From Minisyncoccota bacterium (GTDB lineage Bacteria; Patescibacteriota; Minisyncoccia; Phycocordibacterales; JBAYLF01), in NCBI GenBank assembly GCA_041664205.1, contig JBAYLF010000005.1, positions 7,063 to 71,062 on the forward strand: a DNA stretch of 64,000 nucleotides. The letters are read 5' to 3'. The notes below the pieces were generated by a model that ran no database searches, was not told the origin of the DNA, and saw only the letters and a list, made by a program, of their open reading frames with translations. A program made the translations under genes and the position numbers. Shown piece by piece: positions 3,610-48,663 of this stretch (positions are counted from its first letter, which is position 1; each line of letters starts with the position of its first letter).

Positions 3610-5697
3610 TTATTTGATGAGTAATAATGTTTTAAAAATATCTACTACCGAAGCTCCAAAGTTGTATAAAGTATTCATCGAAACTGGCGAAGTTGGTTCA
3701 GGTGGTGGAGGTGGTGTTTGAACTGGCGGAGCAGATTCCATCGGCATAGGAGGTGGTGGCTGCATCTGGGGTTGAGGTGATTGCATTAAGGTTGGGTTTG
3801 CAGGCATCATTTGGCCTTCACCTCCAGTGGTGCTATTTGATGGTGGTTGCATCATTTCTCCGGAAGATGGCATTGAGCCACCTCCAGTTGTTCCTTGTGG
3901 AGGTTGCTGGTACTGCTGGTAATTTTCTTGTGGTGGTTGCATTTGCGGACAATTTTCACCTTCGCATTTAATCATTGTTGTCGGAGGAACAGGCCCTCCA
4001 GAGCTTCCAGCAGGAGCTCCACAGTTTGTAGGATTTGACTCGCAGTATTTTTGGCACTCTTCAGGACTACTGCATCCACCTGGACCCTTCATTGTTTGCT
4101 GCATTTGATAACCACCGCTAGTACTACCAGATGTTCCTGGCGCCATTTGATTTTGGATATTTTGAGTTCCAAAGTTTTTGCATTCTTCCTGATTTGATTC
4201 ACAATATTTCTGACATTCTTCGGGGCTGCTACATCCGCCTGGGCCTTTCATCATTTGTGGTTGTTGATAGTTGCTGTTATTGCCAGGAGCTCCAGGCATA
4301 ATTTGATTTTGGCCATCACCTTGTGGTCTAAAATTGGCACACTCTTCTTTATTTGATTCGCAATATTTCTGACACTCTTCAGGACTGCTGCATCCACCCA
4401 GACCCTTCATCATTCCTCCATTAAAAGTAGAAGATCCATTACCTCCTTGTCCTGGAGGAGTCATATTTTGAAAGTTTTTCATATTTGATTCAAAACAAGT
4501 TCGTATTTTATCACCGATAGATTGGGTTGCAGGACCTGATCCACTTTTTAATTTATTCATAGCTTCAGTTCCGATTTGTGCTTCCAAACAAGTTAATACT
4601 TCTGGTGGAGCTTGTTTTAACGATTCGTTAAAACGTGCTGTTCCTTCCTCCATTCTTTTTAGATCTTCAGGACTTATTAATCCGTTCTCTTTTCCAAAAT
4701 CAAAGCATGTTTGTTGATTGTCAGGATTATTACAAAAGGCATCACATTCTTGTTTATTTTTGCACCCGCCAGGACCTTTACCTTTTGTTTTTTTGGCCAT
4801 AGTTGCTTCTTCTGGTGTCATAAATCCTGCAGCTTCGGCAAAAGCTGAACATTCGTCAAAATGTTCTTCAGCACCGCAATAAGCATCGCATGCTTCTTTT
4901 CCTTTGCAGTTTGGCATTTTAACTCCTTTTTTAATTGCCGCCAGTACTTTTTGAGAATCAGCTTTTTCTTGATCGCTCATAAAGCCTGCTTCTATGGCGA
5001 AGTTCATACAAACTTCCATATGTGATGAATCATTGCAGTATACATCGCAAGCTTCCTTGCCGTTGCATGGCGGAGGCACAGCACCTTTTTTAACTGCTGC
5101 GACCATTTTTTTAGCATCTTCAAGTTCTTTGCCTTGTATAAAACCTGCAGCTTCGCCAAAAGCGATACATGCTTCCATGTGACTCGAATCATTGCAGTAA
5201 GTATCACACTCTTTTTTGTTATTACATGGCAGAGGTTTTATGCCACTTGTTAGAGCTTTTTGAACTTTTTTTGCTTCTTCCAGTTGGTCTGGAGGCATTA
5301 TGTCATTTTTTTCAGCAAAGGAGACGCATTCATCAATATGGCTCATATCGTTGCAGTATTGCTCACAACTATTTTTATCCTTGCATCCACCTGGCCCCTT
5401 GTTGCCGGCAGCTTTAAATTTTTTTGCTACAGACAGATCTTCTTTGGACATAAGATTATTTTTTTCTGCAAAGTTTAAACATACTTCCATGTGAGCTGAA
5501 TTGTCGCAATATGTTTTGCACGCAGCTTTATCTTTGCAATTTCCCAGTTCTTTGACCGGATATTGAACGCTTTCTATTCCAGTAATTTCGGTGGTAGTTT
5601 GAGCAATAACAATATTTATGAAAAATGCTGATGCTATTGTTAAAAAACCAAGAGTAACTAATTTAGTTAAATTTTTTGTATTCATATTTTTATTCAA
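3610..5697 (-). CDS. Secreted Cys-rich tandem-repeat protein (695 aa): signal peptide, about 6 repeats of C-x5-C-x3-C-x6-H-x3-C, 3 repeats of GPGGCSSPEECQKYCESN, Pro/Gln-rich tail
   Basis: Long uninterrupted ORF. N-terminal hydrophobic signal LVTLGFLTIASAFFINIVIAQ. Repeat units about 53 aa (type A) and about 51 aa (type B) are visible in the translation and as near-identical DNA blocks. The C-terminus is PQPQMQPPPPMPMESAPPVQTPPPPPEP. Confidence 0.8.
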   Translation of the reverse strand: MNKNMNTKNLTKLVTLGFLTIASAFFINIVIAQTTTEITGIESVQYPVKELGNCKDKAACKTYCDNSAHMEVCLNFAEKNNLMSKEDLSVAKKFKAAGNKGPGGCKDKNSCEQYCNDMSHIDECVSFAEKNDIMPPDQLEEAKKVQKALTSGIKPLPCNNKKECDTYCNDSSHMEACIAFGEAAGFIQGKELEDAKKMVAAVKKGAVPPPCNGKEACDVYCNDSSHMEVCMNFAIEAGFMSDQEKADSQKVLAAIKKGVKMPNCKGKEACDAYCGAEEHFDECSAFAEAAGFMTPEEATMAKKTKGKGPGGCKNKQECDAFCNNPDNQQTCFDFGKENGLISPEDLKRMEEGTARFNESLKQAPPEVLTCLEAQIGTEAMNKLKSGSGPATQSIGDKIRTCFESNMKNFQNMTPPGQGGNGSSTFNGGMMKGLGGCSSPEECQKYCESNKEECANFRPQGDGQNQIMPGAPGNNSNYQQPQMMKGPGGCSSPEECQKYCESNQEECKNFGTQNIQNQMAPGTSGSTSGGYQMQQTMKGPGGCSSPEECQKYCESNPTNCGAPAGSSGGPVPPTTMIKCEGENCPQMQPPQENYQQYQQPPQGTTGGGSMPSSGEMMQPPSNSTTGGEGQMMPANPTLMQSPQPQMQPPPPMPMESAPPVQTPPPPPEPTSPVSMNTLYNFGASVVDIFKTLLLIK
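4030..4420. repeat. In-frame tandem repeats (about 153-nt period) encoding type-B modules MMKGPGGCSSPEECQKYCESN
   Basis: Near-identical DNA blocks around 4037-4090, 4181-4250 and 4335-4405. Confidence 0.65.
4587..5550. repeat. In-frame tandem repeats (about 159-nt period) encoding Cys/His-rich type-A modules of the secreted protein
   Basis: Recurrent blocks encoding C..K..C..YCNDSSHMEVC..FAE..GFM...AKK....KG. Confidence 0.6.
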
Positions 5698-6885: not shown

Positions 6886-7800
6886 ATGTTTTGGAAAAGA
6901 AAAAAGTCTCTTAAAGTTGTTACTCACTGTGGCGGATTTCACGCGGACGATGTGTTTGCAACAGCTACACTATTTATAGTTTTTGGAGAGGATAATATTG
7001 AGGTTATCCGAACACGTGATCCTGAGATCATAAAAAATGCGAACATTGTTTTTGATGTTGGTCATATATACGATGTTGAAAAAAATCGTTTCGATCATCA
7101 TCAAGGAGGAGATGACTTAATGAGAAAAAATGGAATTCCTTATGCATCATTTGGTTTGGTTTGGAAAAATTTTGCTTCCAGAATCATTCCTCATCAAGAA
7201 ATAATAGACGCTATCGATAAAAATCTGGTTCAGCCCGTAGACGCAGGAGACAACGGTGTTGTTATTGCAAAAAGTCTGTTTGACGAAATCACGGAGTATG
7301 AAATTTCAGATGTTATAGAAGCTTTTAATAACACTTGGAAAGAAAAGCACTACGATCTAGATAAAGAATTTTTAAATATGGTTCACTTTGCTAAACAACT
7401 CTTGGAAAGGGAAATCGCTCACGAAAGTTCGAAATTTGAAGCTTATCAAATTGTCCAAAAGATTTATAACGAAACTTCTGATAAAAGAATTATAATTTTA
7501 GATCATTATTATCCTTGGAAAAATTTTATTACAAAATGTCCAGAACCTCTTTTTGTTATCGCTCCTTATTTTGAAAATTATGGTGTTCATGCCGTTCCTG
7601 TGGAAGAAAAAAGTTTTGATACAAGAGTAAAAATGCCTGTAGAATGGGGTGGAAAAGAAAAAGAAGAGTTAGCTTTGGCATCAGGTATTCCTGACGCTAT
7701 TTTTTGTCATAAAGGTAGGCATTTTGCTGTTGTAGAAACTAAAGAAGGCGCATTGGAAATGGCAAAAAAAGCGATACAAGCAATTGACGGAAGTTATTAA
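6886..7800 (+). CDS. MYG1/UPF0160 family metal-dependent protein hydrolase
   Basis: N-terminal VVTHCGGFHADDVFATATL and DHHQGG resemble the MYG1 HxGxFHxDE and DHHQ signatures. Confidence 0.7.
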   Translation: MFWKRKKSLKVVTHCGGFHADDVFATATLFIVFGEDNIEVIRTRDPEIIKNANIVFDVGHIYDVEKNRFDHHQGGDDLMRKNGIPYASFGLVWKNFASRIIPHQEIIDAIDKNLVQPVDAGDNGVVIAKSLFDEITEYEISDVIEAFNNTWKEKHYDLDKEFLNMVHFAKQLLEREIAHESSKFEAYQIVQKIYNETSDKRIIILDHYYPWKNFITKCPEPLFVIAPYFENYGVHAVPVEEKSFDTRVKMPVEWGGKEKEELALASGIPDAIFCHKGRHFAVVETKEGALEMAKKAIQAIDGSY

Positions 7801-7827
7801 TTAATATAATCTTTTTTTAGAATATTT

Positions 7828-8286
7828 ATGGAAGAGAAAAAAGTTGTAGTTATAAGCGGAGGTTTTGATCCAATTCATGTTGGTCACATTAGAATGATCC
7901 ATGAAGCGGCTGAGTTAGGAGATGAACTTATCGTTATTGTAAACAATGACAACTGGCTTCGAAAGAAGAAAGGTTTTGCTTTTATCGACGAAGGGGAGCG
8001 AATGGAGATCGTTAAAGCTATAAAAGGTGTTGATAAAGTTGCGCTTTCCGAACATGGTCCAAATCCAACCGACATGAGCGTTTGCGCTGAACTTGAGAAG
8101 ATCAAGCCTGATATTTTCGCTAACGGTGGAGATCGCACAGACAAAAATATTCCAGAGATTCCTGTTTGTGAGAAGATTGGATGTAAAATGGTGTTCGGTG
8201 TAGGGGTCGGAGGTAAAGTTCAAGCGAGTTCTGATCTTCTTAGAAGATACGCTGATTTTTTGAAAAGAAAGGAGAAAGGTGAATAA
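7828..8286 (+). CDS. Cytidylyltransferase-like nucleotidyltransferase (RfaE domain II / TagD-like, HIGH-type motif)
   Basis: VVISGGFDPIHVGHIRMI is the (T/H)xGH nucleotidyltransferase motif. Downstream NGGDRT resembles the KGGD motif of heptose-1-phosphate adenylyltransferases. Confidence 0.6.
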   Translation: MEEKKVVVISGGFDPIHVGHIRMIHEAAELGDELIVIVNNDNWLRKKKGFAFIDEGERMEIVKAIKGVDKVALSEHGPNPTDMSVCAELEKIKPDIFANGGDRTDKNIPEIPVCEKIGCKMVFGVGVGGKVQASSDLLRRYADFLKRKEKGE

Positions 8287-9558: not shown

Positions 9559-10974
9559 ATGAAAGATTATAAAACTACAATTGGTTTGGAAATACATGCA
9601 GAACTCAAAACAAAGACAAAGATGTTTTGTAATTCCAAGAACGATCCCGATGAAGACAAACCTAATGTAAATATCTGCCCTGTATGTATGGGTCATCCTG
9701 GAACTTTGCCTGTTGTAAATAAAGAGGCAGTTAGGCATGTGCTTAGGGTTGGAGTTGCTGTGGGTGGAAAAATTGCCGATTTCACAGAGTTTGATAGAAA
9801 AAACTATTTTTATCCTGATATTCCTAAGGGCTATCAGATAAGCCAATACAAATATCCGCTTGTTAGCGGAGGAATGCTTCGTGGAATAGAAATTACTCGC
9901 GTTCATCTTGAAGAAGATACAGGAACCTCACTTCATGAAGAAGGCGATTACTCTCTATTAAATTACAACCGTGCAGGCGTTCCTTTAATGGAGCTTGTTA
10001 CTGAACCAGTAATTCATACTGCCAAAGACGCTTCGGATTTTGCCCGCGAACTTCAGCTTCTTTTGCGCTATTTGGGCGCAGGTGAGGCCAATATGGAAAA
10101 GGGCGAGATGCGAGTTGAGGCAAATATTTCTGTAAGCGCAGATGAAAAATTAGGCACAAAAGTTGAGGTAAAAAATCTAAACTCATTTAAGACAGTTGAA
10201 AAGGCGATTGAGTATGAAGTAAAAAGACATATCGAAGCGTTGGAGAACGGTGAGCAGATCGTTCAAGAAACAAGAGGTTGGGACGAAGTAAAGCAAGCAA
10301 CTTTCTCTCAGCGAAAAAAAGAGGATTCACACGATTATCGTTATTTTCCTGATCCTGATATTCCAAAATTTAAATTATCAGAATTTCCTGAGTTTAGAGT
10401 TGAAGAAATCAAAAAAGGATTACCGGAACTTCCATGGGAAAAAAGAAAGCGCTATGAAGAAAAATACGGTATAAAGCTTGAAGATGTTGAAATATACGTT
10501 CGCGATAAAAAGTGGGCAGATTATTTTGAAAAAGTTACAGCCGAGTTTAAGGGTGATGTTGAGCTTATTAAACTCGCATCAAATTACATCACTTCAGATC
10601 TTGTTGGGCTTATTAAATCAATAGGTGAAGCAAAATTTCCAGAAGCAATGTTGCTTGCGAAACTTATAAAAATGACGAAGGATTCAATGGTTTCTTCTCG
10701 TGGAGCAAAAGATATTCTAAAAATTATGTATGGTCATGGTGGCGATCCAGAAGAAATTGCAAACAAGGAAGGCTTATTGCAAAAGAGCAATGAAGAAGAA
10801 CTTAAGGCGACTGCAGAAAAAATCATTGCAGCTAATTCTCAAGTCGCAGCCGATTACAAAGCAGGCAAAGAATCTTCTCTTCAGTTTTTGATCGGACAAG
10901 GAATGAAAGAAACAAAAGGAAGCGCAAATCCTCAAGTTCTCAGAAAGATATTTATGGAATTATTGAAGAATTAA
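9559..10974 (+). CDS. gatB: Asp-tRNA(Asn)/Glu-tRNA(Gln) amidotransferase subunit B
   Basis: MKDYKTTIGLEIHAELKTKTKMFC... is the canonical GatB N-terminus. 471 aa. Confidence 0.9.
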   Translation: MKDYKTTIGLEIHAELKTKTKMFCNSKNDPDEDKPNVNICPVCMGHPGTLPVVNKEAVRHVLRVGVAVGGKIADFTEFDRKNYFYPDIPKGYQISQYKYPLVSGGMLRGIEITRVHLEEDTGTSLHEEGDYSLLNYNRAGVPLMELVTEPVIHTAKDASDFARELQLLLRYLGAGEANMEKGEMRVEANISVSADEKLGTKVEVKNLNSFKTVEKAIEYEVKRHIEALENGEQIVQETRGWDEVKQATFSQRKKEDSHDYRYFPDPDIPKFKLSEFPEFRVEEIKKGLPELPWEKRKRYEEKYGIKLEDVEIYVRDKKWADYFEKVTAEFKGDVELIKLASNYITSDLVGLIKSIGEAKFPEAMLLAKLIKMTKDSMVSSRGAKDILKIMYGHGGDPEEIANKEGLLQKSNEEELKATAEKIIAANSQVAADYKAGKESSLQFLIGQGMKETKGSANPQVLRKIFMELLKN

Positions 10975-11008
10975 AAAAATATTTTTTCTGTCATTTCACT
11001 TTCTCTTG

Positions 11009-11078
11009 TCATTCCCGCGAAGGCGGGAATCCAGATTAAACAGAGATAAACTAGATTCCCGCCTTCGCGGGAATGACA
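11009..11078. repeat. GC-rich palindromic intergenic element, copy 1: GTCATTCCCGCGAAGGCGGGAATC - 22-nt loop - GATTCCCGCCTTCGCGGGAATGAC
   Basis: The 70-bp core matches 48537-48606 with a single mismatch; 24-bp inverted arms. An extra partial duplication of the left end lies at 10988-11008. Confidence 0.7.
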
Positions 11079-11093
11079 GATTTTTAAAATAAA

Positions 11094-11128
11094 AAAAGAC
11101 CGTCTGTAATAGTCGGTCTTTTTGTATT
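11094..11128. terminator. Bidirectional terminator AAGACCG-loop-CGGTCTT between gatB and the convergent 95-aa gene
   Basis: 7-bp stem flanked by an A-tract upstream and TTTTTG downstream. Confidence 0.5.
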
Positions 11129-31771: not shown

Positions 31772-31812
31772 AAAAAAATGAGCCCGACGCATAGCGTCGG
31801 GCTCTAAGGTTT
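31772..31812. terminator. Bidirectional GC-rich terminator hairpin GAGCCCGACGC-ata-GCGTCGGGCTC (copy A)
   Basis: 11-bp perfect GC-rich stem between convergent gdh and the metallophosphoesterase gene. Flanked by an A-tract and T-rich sequence. Confidence 0.7.
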
Positions 31813-32596: not shown

Positions 32597-32629
32597 GAGC
32601 CCGACGCTATGCGTCGGGCTCATTTTTTG
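32597..32629. terminator. GC-rich terminator hairpin GAGCCCGACGC-tat-GCGTCGGGCTC + TTTTTT (copy B, inverted relative to copy A)
   Basis: Stem identical to 31780-31804. Downstream of the PAP2-like gene that ends at 32640. Confidence 0.65.
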
Positions 32630-47283: not shown

Positions 47284-48507
47284 ATGAAAATAAAAGAACT
47301 CTTCTCAAAGAAAAGTCTAGTTATAATATTCGCACTTCTTATTATTGGAAGTTCTTTTTTTCTTGGTGTGTTTGTAGGAGCTGAAGTTCGTTCTGATGTG
47401 GACAGAGTTGCTAGTTTGAGTAATAAAGAAGACGTTACAGTGCCCGTTGATTTCGCTCCTTTTTGGAAAGCTTGGAATATTTTAAAAGAAAAGCATATTT
47501 CTGGAACTACAACTCCTGATCAAACAAAAGTTTGGGGTGCTATACAAGGACTTGCATCATCATTTAATGATCCATATACCACTTTCTTTCCACCACAGGA
47601 GGCTAAAGTTTTCAAAAGTGAGATAAGCGGTAATTTTGAAGGTATTGGTGCGGAAATAGGAATTAGAGATAATTTAATTACAGTTATATCTCCATTAAAA
47701 GGATCGCCTGCTGAGAAAGCTGGAATGCTTCCAGGAGACAAGATAATTAAGATTGATGACAAAGATGTTATTAAGACAAGCGTTGAGGATGCTGTAAAAC
47801 TTATTCGTGGAGATAAAGGAACAAAGGTTAAGATTACAGTTACAAGAGCAGGAGTAAAAGAATCGATAGAACTTTCTGTTACACGTGATGTTGTTGATAT
47901 ACCTACTGTTGAAACTAAAAAAAGAAGCGATGGTATTTTCGTGATTAGTCTTTATAGTTTCTCGGCAACCTCAGCAGATCTTTTTAGGAAGGCTTTAAGA
48001 GAATTTGTTATTTCTAAAGATGATAAGCTTATTTTGGACTTGCGTGGCAATCCAGGTGGATATTTGGAAGCAGCTGTTGATATGGCAAGTTGGTTTTTAC
48101 CATCAGGTGAGGTTATTGTGAGTGAAAACTATGGAGGACATCACGAATCAGATTTTTATAGAAGTAAAGGATACAACATATTTAACAAAAATCTTAAATT
48201 TGTTATATTAGTCAACAATGGTTCCGCTTCTGCTAGCGAGATTTTATCTGGAGCGTTGCAGGAGTATGGTATAGCAAAGCTTGTTGGAACTAGGACTTTT
48301 GGTAAAGGCTCAGTCCAAGAATTGGTAAGTATAACGCCTGAGACATCTCTAAAAGTAACAATTGCTAAATGGTTTACTCCAAAAGGCAGATCAATCTCAG
48401 ATGGGGGATTAACGCCAGATTTTGAAGTTAAAATGACAGAAGAAGATTTTAAAAATGGCAAAGATCCTCAAATGGATAAGGCTATAGAGGTTGTTAAGAA
48501 TATGTAA
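47284..48507 (+). CDS. Carboxyl-terminal processing protease (S41 peptidase with PDZ domain)
   Basis: PDZ GIGAEIG...GSPAEKAGMLPGDKII. S41 catalytic region LDLRGNPGG and VNNGSASASE. Confidence 0.85.
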   Translation: MKIKELFSKKSLVIIFALLIIGSSFFLGVFVGAEVRSDVDRVASLSNKEDVTVPVDFAPFWKAWNILKEKHISGTTTPDQTKVWGAIQGLASSFNDPYTTFFPPQEAKVFKSEISGNFEGIGAEIGIRDNLITVISPLKGSPAEKAGMLPGDKIIKIDDKDVIKTSVEDAVKLIRGDKGTKVKITVTRAGVKESIELSVTRDVVDIPTVETKKRSDGIFVISLYSFSATSADLFRKALREFVISKDDKLILDLRGNPGGYLEAAVDMASWFLPSGEVIVSENYGGHHESDFYRSKGYNIFNKNLKFVILVNNGSASASEILSGALQEYGIAKLVGTRTFGKGSVQELVSITPETSLKVTIAKWFTPKGRSISDGGLTPDFEVKMTEEDFKNGKDPQMDKAIEVVKNM

Positions 48508-48536
48508 GAATACGCATGTTGTTCTGGCGGTTTTCT

Positions 48537-48606
48537 GTCATTCCCGCGAAGGCGGGAATCCAGATTAAACAGAGATGAACTAGATTCCCGCCTTCGCGGG
48601 AATGAC
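48537..48606. repeat. GC-rich palindromic intergenic element, copy 2
   Basis: Matches 11009-11078 except one base (G vs A in the loop). 24-bp inverted arms; each arm also forms a TCCCGC-GAAG/CTTC-GCGGGA hairpin. Confidence 0.7.
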
Positions 48607-48663
48607 AGCGAATAAGTAAGTTTTTAATAATAAGTTTAATTAAAAGTATTAATAAAAAATAAT

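Follow-up and report, generated by a model that had tools for sequence, protein, structure and literature searches.

Our analysis covers a 64,000-nt stretch of one contig (the window) from an AT-rich Patescibacteria (Paceibacterota) MAG. A repeat search of this window revealed a 73-nt direct repeat at positions 11007-11079 and 48536-48608, with 99% identity. The two copies agree at 72 of 73 positions, the lone difference being an A versus a G in a short central spacer, and each forms a large palindrome, as the original prediction had noted. That prediction also placed both copies in 3' intergenic DNA, and we find copy 1 33 nt past the stop codon of gatB and copy 2 28 nt past that of an S41 C-terminal protease gene. 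After gatB, the source contig carries the copy 1 element, an intrinsic terminator, and a convergent 95-aa open reading frame (ORF) without a Pfam match; the terminator is common to gatB and this ORF. The features of the two loci are listed below, with each element described as a doublet of two arms that match the Neisseria Transformation Sequence (NTS) and the Ssn-related motif (SRM).

10984-11006, + strand: partial tandem duplication of the left junction of copy 1, TTTTCTGTCATT then TCACTTTCTCT, offset 18 nt
11007-11079, no strand: doublet copy 1, NTS-> 16-nt spacer <-NTS; gatB stop at 10974, intrinsic terminator 15 nt ahead
11007-11034, + strand: left arm of copy 1, a forward NTS, TGTCATTCCCGCGAAGGCGGGAATCCAG; one mismatch to the NTS, exact match to the SRM
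11035-11050, no strand: spacer of copy 1, ATTAAACAGAGATAAA, AT-rich, 16 nt, 19% GC; no conservation outside the source genome
11051-11078, - strand: right arm of copy 1, a forward NTS, TGTCATTCCCGCGAAGGCGGGAATCTAG; matches NTS and SRM
11094-11127, no strand: canonical bidirectional intrinsic terminator (A-run, GACCG...CGGTC stem, T-run), outside the element
48536-48608, no strand: doublet copy 2; protease stop at 48507, rplI start (48664) 55 nt ahead
48536-48563, + strand: left arm of copy 2, a forward NTS; matches NTS and SRM
48580-48607, - strand: right arm of copy 2, a forward NTS; matches NTS and SRM

The arms of each element share the sequence TGTCATTCCCGCGAAGGCGGGAATCYAG and are arranged convergently, with their GTCAT ends outermost. 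On either side of the 16-nt spacer, they pair over 25 bases without a mismatch, or over 28 if one C/T mismatch is included, in place of the 24-bp arms and 22-nt loop first proposed; in copy 2 the palindrome is one base longer (CTGTCA...TGACAG, 48535-48608). Each element contains the 25-mer TGTCATTCCCGCGAAGGCGGGAATC once on each strand, giving four occurrences in the window; 100 shuffles gave no match to it even with three mismatches allowed. The element has a GC content of 50.7% and the arm one of 60.7%, in a window of 34.3% GC; the earlier estimate of about 70% was too high. Folded as RNA, the whole element forms one long hairpin of -69.4 kcal/mol (z = -13.6), and folded as single-stranded DNA (ssDNA) it again forms one long hairpin of about -34 kcal/mol (z about -11 to -12). 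A single arm folds as ssDNA into an 8-bp stem (ATTCCCGC/GCGGGAAT) with a free energy of -8.9 kcal/mol; its 4-nt loop, GAAG, had been described as a GNRA tetraloop and is not one. The minimum-energy ssDNA fold of the doublet is thus the single long hairpin (-34 kcal/mol), not two separate arm hairpins (2 x -8.9 kcal/mol).

Strict matches to ATTCCC-N8-GGGAAT, which the original prediction had likened to Neisseria dRS3 repeats, are confined in the window to the four arms of copies 1 and 2, where this core is perfect. In Neisseria, dRS3 is included in the NTS, a 28-nt sequence (CGTCATTCCCGCGMAVGCGGGAATCYRG) for which its authors tolerate at most one mismatch, and alongside which they define a broader, degenerate motif, the SRM (HGTCWY N0-2 YYVSBRH N0-5 WNVSBRG N0-2 RNCYNB), as reported by Chenal et al (2025; Nat Commun, PMC11893778). 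All four window arms agree with the NTS consensus with one mismatch each (C>T at base 1), and the SRM has four exact matches in the window, all inside the two elements. The GTC 5' of the palindrome and the C 3' of it are present in all arms. In a sample of 537 distinct arms, GTCATT is preceded by C in 51% and by T in 41%; with T at the outer base in so large a share, the window arms are canonical. Since the arms fit the published NTS, with dRS3 inside it, the likeness to dRS3 is more than a resemblance.

The NTS is the binding site of SsnA, a GIY-YIG nuclease of about 100 aa (cd10448) that cuts about 3 nt 5' of it (Chenal et al, 2025). According to that report, SsnA cuts only ssDNA and only the forward strand, and does not bind RNA; the C that follows the palindrome matters most for binding, and the three bases that precede the palindrome matter most for cutting. 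In N. meningitidis, the SsnA/NTS system reduces transformation by NTS-bearing DNA (Chenal et al, 2025). Overall, we conclude with a probability of roughly 0.6 that each element in the window is an inverted pair of the NTS/SRM hairpin repeat, the motif bound and 5'-cut by Ssn-family GIY-YIG nucleases (cd10448). As both the motif and the nuclease are already published, the kind of element is known, and with these palindromes a known repeat appears in a new host. A literature search on the exact 20-mer core returned no match, and Rfam at gathering thresholds returned a tRNA alone and no family match for the element.

We extended the contig beyond the window through look-ups of window proteins. 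This revealed another doublet, the third, at L127 12012-12083 (64084-64155 in window numbering), 84 nt outside the window and 4 nt past the stop codon of an M48 peptidase gene. Its arms are identical to those of copies 1 and 2, and its 16-nt spacer, AGAATTAAGATGAAAA, is different. About 800 nt past copy 3 lies a degenerate single arm (L127 12889-12916, equivalent to 64961-64988), in which one stem pair has changed from C-G to A-T, a compensatory change that keeps the hairpin; it is positioned between a terminator and what we take, by eye, to be a tRNA gene. In place of the two copies first counted, about 80 kb of this one contig thus hold seven arms, in three doublets and one single. Each of the three doublets follows a + strand stop codon at a distance of 4-33 nt, and all share one orientation, an agreement with a chance probability of 0.25. 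Comparison of the flanking bases, a check that the original prediction had proposed, identified no target-site duplication at any of the three doublets, and none of the seven arms contains an insertion.

Contigs assembled independently from another run (Logan SRR6484324) enter the first arm from gatB and from the M48 peptidase gene, with identical junction sequence. At these two loci the Logan contigs (ends of L122 and L128) stop at the same k-mer in the first arm, ...GGCGGGAATCCA, as expected since the arm is a repeat. These doublets fragment short-read assemblies and are unannotated in public records. Separately, the window contains two near-identical GC-rich hairpins, GAGCCCGACGC-NNN-GCGTCGGGCTC, about 800 nt apart at 31780-31804 and 32597-32621, each adjoined by an A-run or T-run; these look like terminators with a common stem and may represent a second small repeat family. 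The window also carries a 159-nt unit in three tandem copies (4003-4414; 61-78% identity) within a long minus-strand ORF (3610-5697) that probably encodes a repeat-domain surface protein.

Beyond the source contig, more than 120 IMG/VR viral contigs, with GC contents of 0.43-0.73, carry the exact 24-mer arm between unrelated flanks. The general doublet pattern GCGGGAATCCAG-N12-20-CTAGATTCCCGC (CCAG-N12-20-CTAG) was found in at least 116 genome stretches. Among the matches listed, hosts include Desulfobulbaceae, Pirellulales, Smithellaceae, Methylotenera, Elusimicrobia, Omnitrophota, Acidobacteria and others, as well as the CPR groups Magasanikbacteria, Parcubacteria, Saccharibacteria, Komeilibacteria and Taylorbacteria; many of the genomes among these listed matches contain several doublet copies. 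Both 28-nt arms occur exactly in 14 metagenome contigs (GC 0.33-0.50), which represent 12 distinct sites because two contig pairs are duplicates, and each of the 12 sites has its own spacer. The spacer of copies 1 and 2 together with the inner arms gave no match in 185,579 species genomes and JGI metagenomes, and this version of the doublet is, by these sequence searches, private to the source lineage. As a search pattern for the element it is too narrow, since copy 3 has a different spacer.

In some lineages, a longer conserved unit encloses the NTS doublet and has outer inverted repeats of its own, such as cgtaaaaagt...actttttacg or ttacgaaac...gtttcgtaa. Such nested doublets occur in Desulfobulbaceae MAG127 (L142, L149, L166, L174, L195, L197, L222, L231), in Smithellaceae (L150, L160, L212, L224), in a Desulfuromonadales MAG (L223), and in Saccharibacteria-like sequences (L151, L156, L233). 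Evidently, larger MITE-like elements can contain NTS doublets.

In the doublets, the GC content of the spacer correlates with that of the host (rho 0.53, p 2e-10, n = 124), whereas the arms stay constant. Similarly, copies 1 and 3 are identical at 56 of 56 arm positions and at 8 of 16 spacer positions (Fisher p 1e-6). Among 1039 distinct arms, double substitutions at stem pairs are compensatory in 92 cases versus non-pairing in 2. Together, the invariant arms, drifting spacers and compensatory changes show selection or conversion acting on both the arm sequence and the hairpin, and recent copying alone does not explain them.

The arms also show a recurrent feature on their 5' side. The original prediction had noted a partial duplication to the left of copy 1, which is real and spans 10984-11006; within it, TTTTCTGTCATT (10984-10995) repeats the left junction as it stands in copy 2, at an offset of 18 nt on the upstream side of the true end. 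Across 496 distinct arms, an upstream partial GTCATTCC copy is present at 58, versus 27 in the downstream control, and the offsets of this stutter peak at 18-22 nt. The stutter unit comprises about 9 nt of flank plus GTCATTCCCGC, in one to three tandem copies before the full NTS, and it occurs across phyla; examples include the window (10984-11006), L003, L039, L082, L120 and others. This stutter may be a trace left by nicking, slippage or copying events at the hairpin. In the accessible text of Chenal et al (2025) we found no description of it.

The convergent arrangement of the arms has a counterpart elsewhere. At seven viral-contig loci (L029 at 7785-8165, L057, L090, L074, L015, L046 and L040), two convergent arms enclose an ssn gene (NTS-> ssn-> <-NTS), with an arm-to-arm gap of 322-332 nt. 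The ORFs of these units are GIY-YIG proteins (Pfam PF01541, E 1e-14 to 1e-16), and in several IMG/VR contigs an arm lies just upstream of a small GIY-YIG gene. Because the doublet shares its convergent geometry with these units, it looks like a cargo-less, MITE-like derivative: judged on anatomy, the window doublet would stand to the NTS-ssn-NTS unit as a MITE stands to its parent element. We know of no demonstration of transposition or homing by Ssn, and GIY-YIG enzymes hydrolyse DNA without covalent intermediates. Across the viral contigs, convergent NTS pairs are only slightly commoner than tandem or divergent pairs, and we make no claim that the convergent doublet is a uniquely favoured form. 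In the survey of Chenal et al (2025), ssn genes are often bracketed by the motif on both sides, and an IS-like hypothesis is put forward there.

We searched for an ssn or other GIY-YIG gene near the copies by tblastn, with a 9-sequence HMM run with filters off, and with a GIY-YIG motif regex over all six-frame ORFs, and found none in the window plus about 16 kb of extensions (about 80 kb in total). Pfam tables for most of this region list housekeeping genes and ORFs without a Pfam match, with no GIY-YIG, transposase, integrase, recombinase or prophage gene among the called genes. An Ssn profile searched against a 5.8-billion-protein set identified at least 8000 homologues; the named matches among the 120 listed are almost all proteobacterial. 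A plasmid BLAST search returned a few matches, which are unannotated.

We compared the gatB region with that of the three closest relatives checked, whose GatB homologues are 71-72% identical and whose downstream gene order is different. No NTS or SRM lies within up to 10 kb on either side of gatB in these relatives, contig extent permitting, so the doublets are not conserved terminators. In two of the three (L123 11440-11800; L126 11430-11677), gatB is followed by what we take, by eye, to be an RNase P RNA gene (GAGGAAAGTCCG...). The original prediction had set against mobility the case that only two copies exist, conserved orthologously in relatives; there is instead a third doublet, and the gatB regions of the three relatives checked are without an NTS. 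No precise empty site is visible among the three, as expected from their distance and differing gene order, and among the contigs retrieved for the identical GatB and Ctp proteins, none represents a strain without the element.

Based on these data, we propose that an NTS-ssn-NTS unit gave rise to the 73-nt element as a non-autonomous, MITE-like derivative, which would have entered the Paceibacterota genome horizontally and then multiplied in intergenic 3' regions. Either gene conversion or a sequence-specific, trans-acting protein would keep its arms from changing. As SsnA cuts only the forward NTS strand, the convergent doublet would offer one cuttable site per strand, and either strand, once single-stranded during replication, DNA uptake or conjugation, would present a forward NTS. 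From the cleavage position reported by Chenal et al (2025), an Ssn nick is predicted about 3 nt outside each end of the element: near 11003/11004 (+) and 11082/11081 (-) for copy 1, and near 48532/48533 (+) and 48611/48610 (-) for copy 2. Such nicking could promote recombination or copying and, where cells are competent, would fragment incoming DNA. The fold predictions suggest that the long hairpin, which resembles the duplex form uncut by SsnA, may mask the two NTS hairpins. Any effect of the 28-bp RNA hairpin on the gatB and ctp-rplI transcripts would be secondary.

A bolder extension, which we consider speculative and on balance improbable, starts from a Paceibacterota genome that carries NTS doublets and has no Ssn of its own. 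Here, the doublets would be selfish hairpin DNA that crosses phyla via ssDNA uptake and relies on nucleases from the host or from neighbouring cells, or else marks used by DNA-scavenging CPR cells to tag or fragment incoming strands, with the 18-22-nt stutter as a footprint of copying.

The position of the doublets could also suggest an RNA-level primary role, with the 28-bp hairpin serving as a terminator, 3'-exonuclease block or RNase III site in the gatB 3' UTR and at ctp-rplI, and its repeat nature incidental. All three doublets follow + strand stops within 4-33 nt in one orientation, the hairpin predicted for the RNA is highly stable (-69 kcal/mol, z = -13.6), and the right end of copy 2 supplies a -35-like ATGACA with AATAAT 18 nt on (48602-48631), a sigma-70-like promoter match 33 nt upstream of rplI in a group whose promoters are poorly known. 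Yet one orientation in three of three copies is expected by chance at 0.25, and the long hairpin is without a T-run, so that it does not class as an intrinsic terminator; a terminator scan gave a weak flag on the inner arm of the - strand and nothing else in the long hairpin. Copy 1 has a separate canonical bidirectional terminator 15 nt downstream, which makes the terminator role suggested in the original prediction unlikely there. Moreover, the element has no Rfam family match, gatB is not followed by it in the three closest relatives checked, and in other phyla and phage contigs the arms occur in all contexts and orientations. SsnA is reported not to bind RNA (Chenal et al, 2025). All told, we consider a primary role in RNA unlikely; a secondary RNA effect of the hairpin is possible. 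Misjoining of GC-rich foreign fragments into an AT-rich contig, by assembly artefact or contamination, might be suspected from an element of 51% GC in a host of 34%. This is excluded by independent assemblies and multiple sites: the junction is identical in the Logan SRR6484324 assembly, three sites with different flanks lie on one 218-kb contig (ENA ERZ27249449, k141_993241), and doublets of the same kind occur in many other CPR assemblies.

Two further explanations keep the repeat as DNA and assign it to a different enzyme. A REP/REPIN-type inverted doublet mobilised by a domesticated IS200/IS605-like tyrosine transposase (RAYT), and not by Ssn, would share the anatomy seen here: a pair of inverted hairpin repeats around a short spacer, placed between genes in several copies and without target-site duplication. 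Chenal et al (2025) themselves draw the REPIN analogy. The arm is specifically the NTS, however, for which the experimentally shown partner is SsnA (Chenal et al, 2025), and the genes bracketed by arms elsewhere encode GIY-YIG proteins, not Y1 transposases. No Y1_Tnp or other transposase Pfam match occurs among the called genes of the approximately 80 kb, and REP sequences are normally species-specific, whereas the NTS arm is identical across phyla; we therefore regard involvement of a RAYT as quite unlikely. Alternatively, the arms could be dRS3-type attachment or target sites for a site-specific recombinase, making the doublet a landing pad and not a mobile unit. In Neisseria, the IS110-like recombinase PivNM integrates Nf filamentous prophages at dRS3, so that dRS3 is documented as a phage recombinase target (cited in Chenal et al, 2025), and a perfect dRS3 lies within each arm. 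Set against this, recombinase and prophage genes are absent from the approximately 80 kb and all seven arms are free of insertions, which leaves the landing-pad explanation unsupported; it would also leave the multiplication of doublets with invariant arms unexplained, and we give it very little credence.

Reading the elements as NTS/SRM pairs adds several observations to a system whose NTS/Ssn pairing was described only in 2025. Cargo-less NTS doublets in AT-rich CPR genomes are new, as are the combination of invariant arms with drifting spacers and the recurrent 5' stutter. An arm of 61% GC in an AT-rich, reduced CPR genome would be expected to decay quickly unless maintained, and direct evidence of constraint comes from arms that stay the same while their spacers take on the composition of the host. 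The minimal doublet, with the end geometry of NTS-ssn-NTS units, supports a view of those units as IS-like and of doublets as their MITEs, and the recurrent stutter may point to the copying mechanism.

The MITE/REP-like reading of the original prediction fits the anatomy of the elements, with arms that converge like the NTS pairs around ssn, and the comparison with known systems can now be drawn more closely. Like MITEs such as the Neisseria Correia elements, the doublets are short and cargo-less, have inverted-repeat ends, lie near gene ends and can supply promoter-like hexamers. They differ in that each terminal repeat is itself a hairpin and in that no target-site duplication flanks the three copies, so that despite their inverted ends they are not classical MITEs. 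We know of no transposase with ends matching the doublet; NTS-ssn-NTS units share the doublet's ends, and the mobility of such units is hypothetical. Neisseria dRS3/NIMEs resemble the doublets in their perfect ATTCCC-N8-GGGAAT core and in the inverted dRS3 pairs around a short intergenic segment. In NIMEs, the internal segments (RS elements) measure about 50-150 bp and are members of repeat families, whereas the segment enclosed here is 16 nt, belongs to no repeat family elsewhere and is unique to the source genome, and the host phylum differs; the doublets are thus not NIMEs.

REP/BIME/REPIN elements of Enterobacteria and Pseudomonas are similar in being inverted hairpin doublets that form a long hairpin, intergenic, multi-copy and without target-site duplication, and in their thought dependence on a single trans-acting enzyme specific for ssDNA hairpins. 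That enzyme is an HUH tyrosine transposase (RAYT) there, versus a hydrolytic GIY-YIG nuclease here, and REPs are lineage-specific, in contrast to an NTS arm that is identical across phyla. The doublet arrangement of the REP-RAYT system is present in the window, but a RAYT (Y1 HUH) gene is not found in the approximately 80 kb. Compared with the NTS/SRM and Ssn system, our elements differ in having no ssn between or near the arms (about 80 kb), a spacer of only 16 nt, and T in place of C at the outer base, with Ssn cleavage here predicted from sequence. Their host, an AT-rich Paceibacterota MAG, belongs to a group poorly covered by the RefSeq-based survey reported by Chenal et al (2025). The elements share with the NTS described there its consensus, with one mismatch, its 8-bp hairpin and its flanking GTC 5' and C 3' (Chenal et al, 2025). 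On the source contig they are likewise multi-copy and intergenic, and their inverted arrangement is that of the NTS pairs around ssn.
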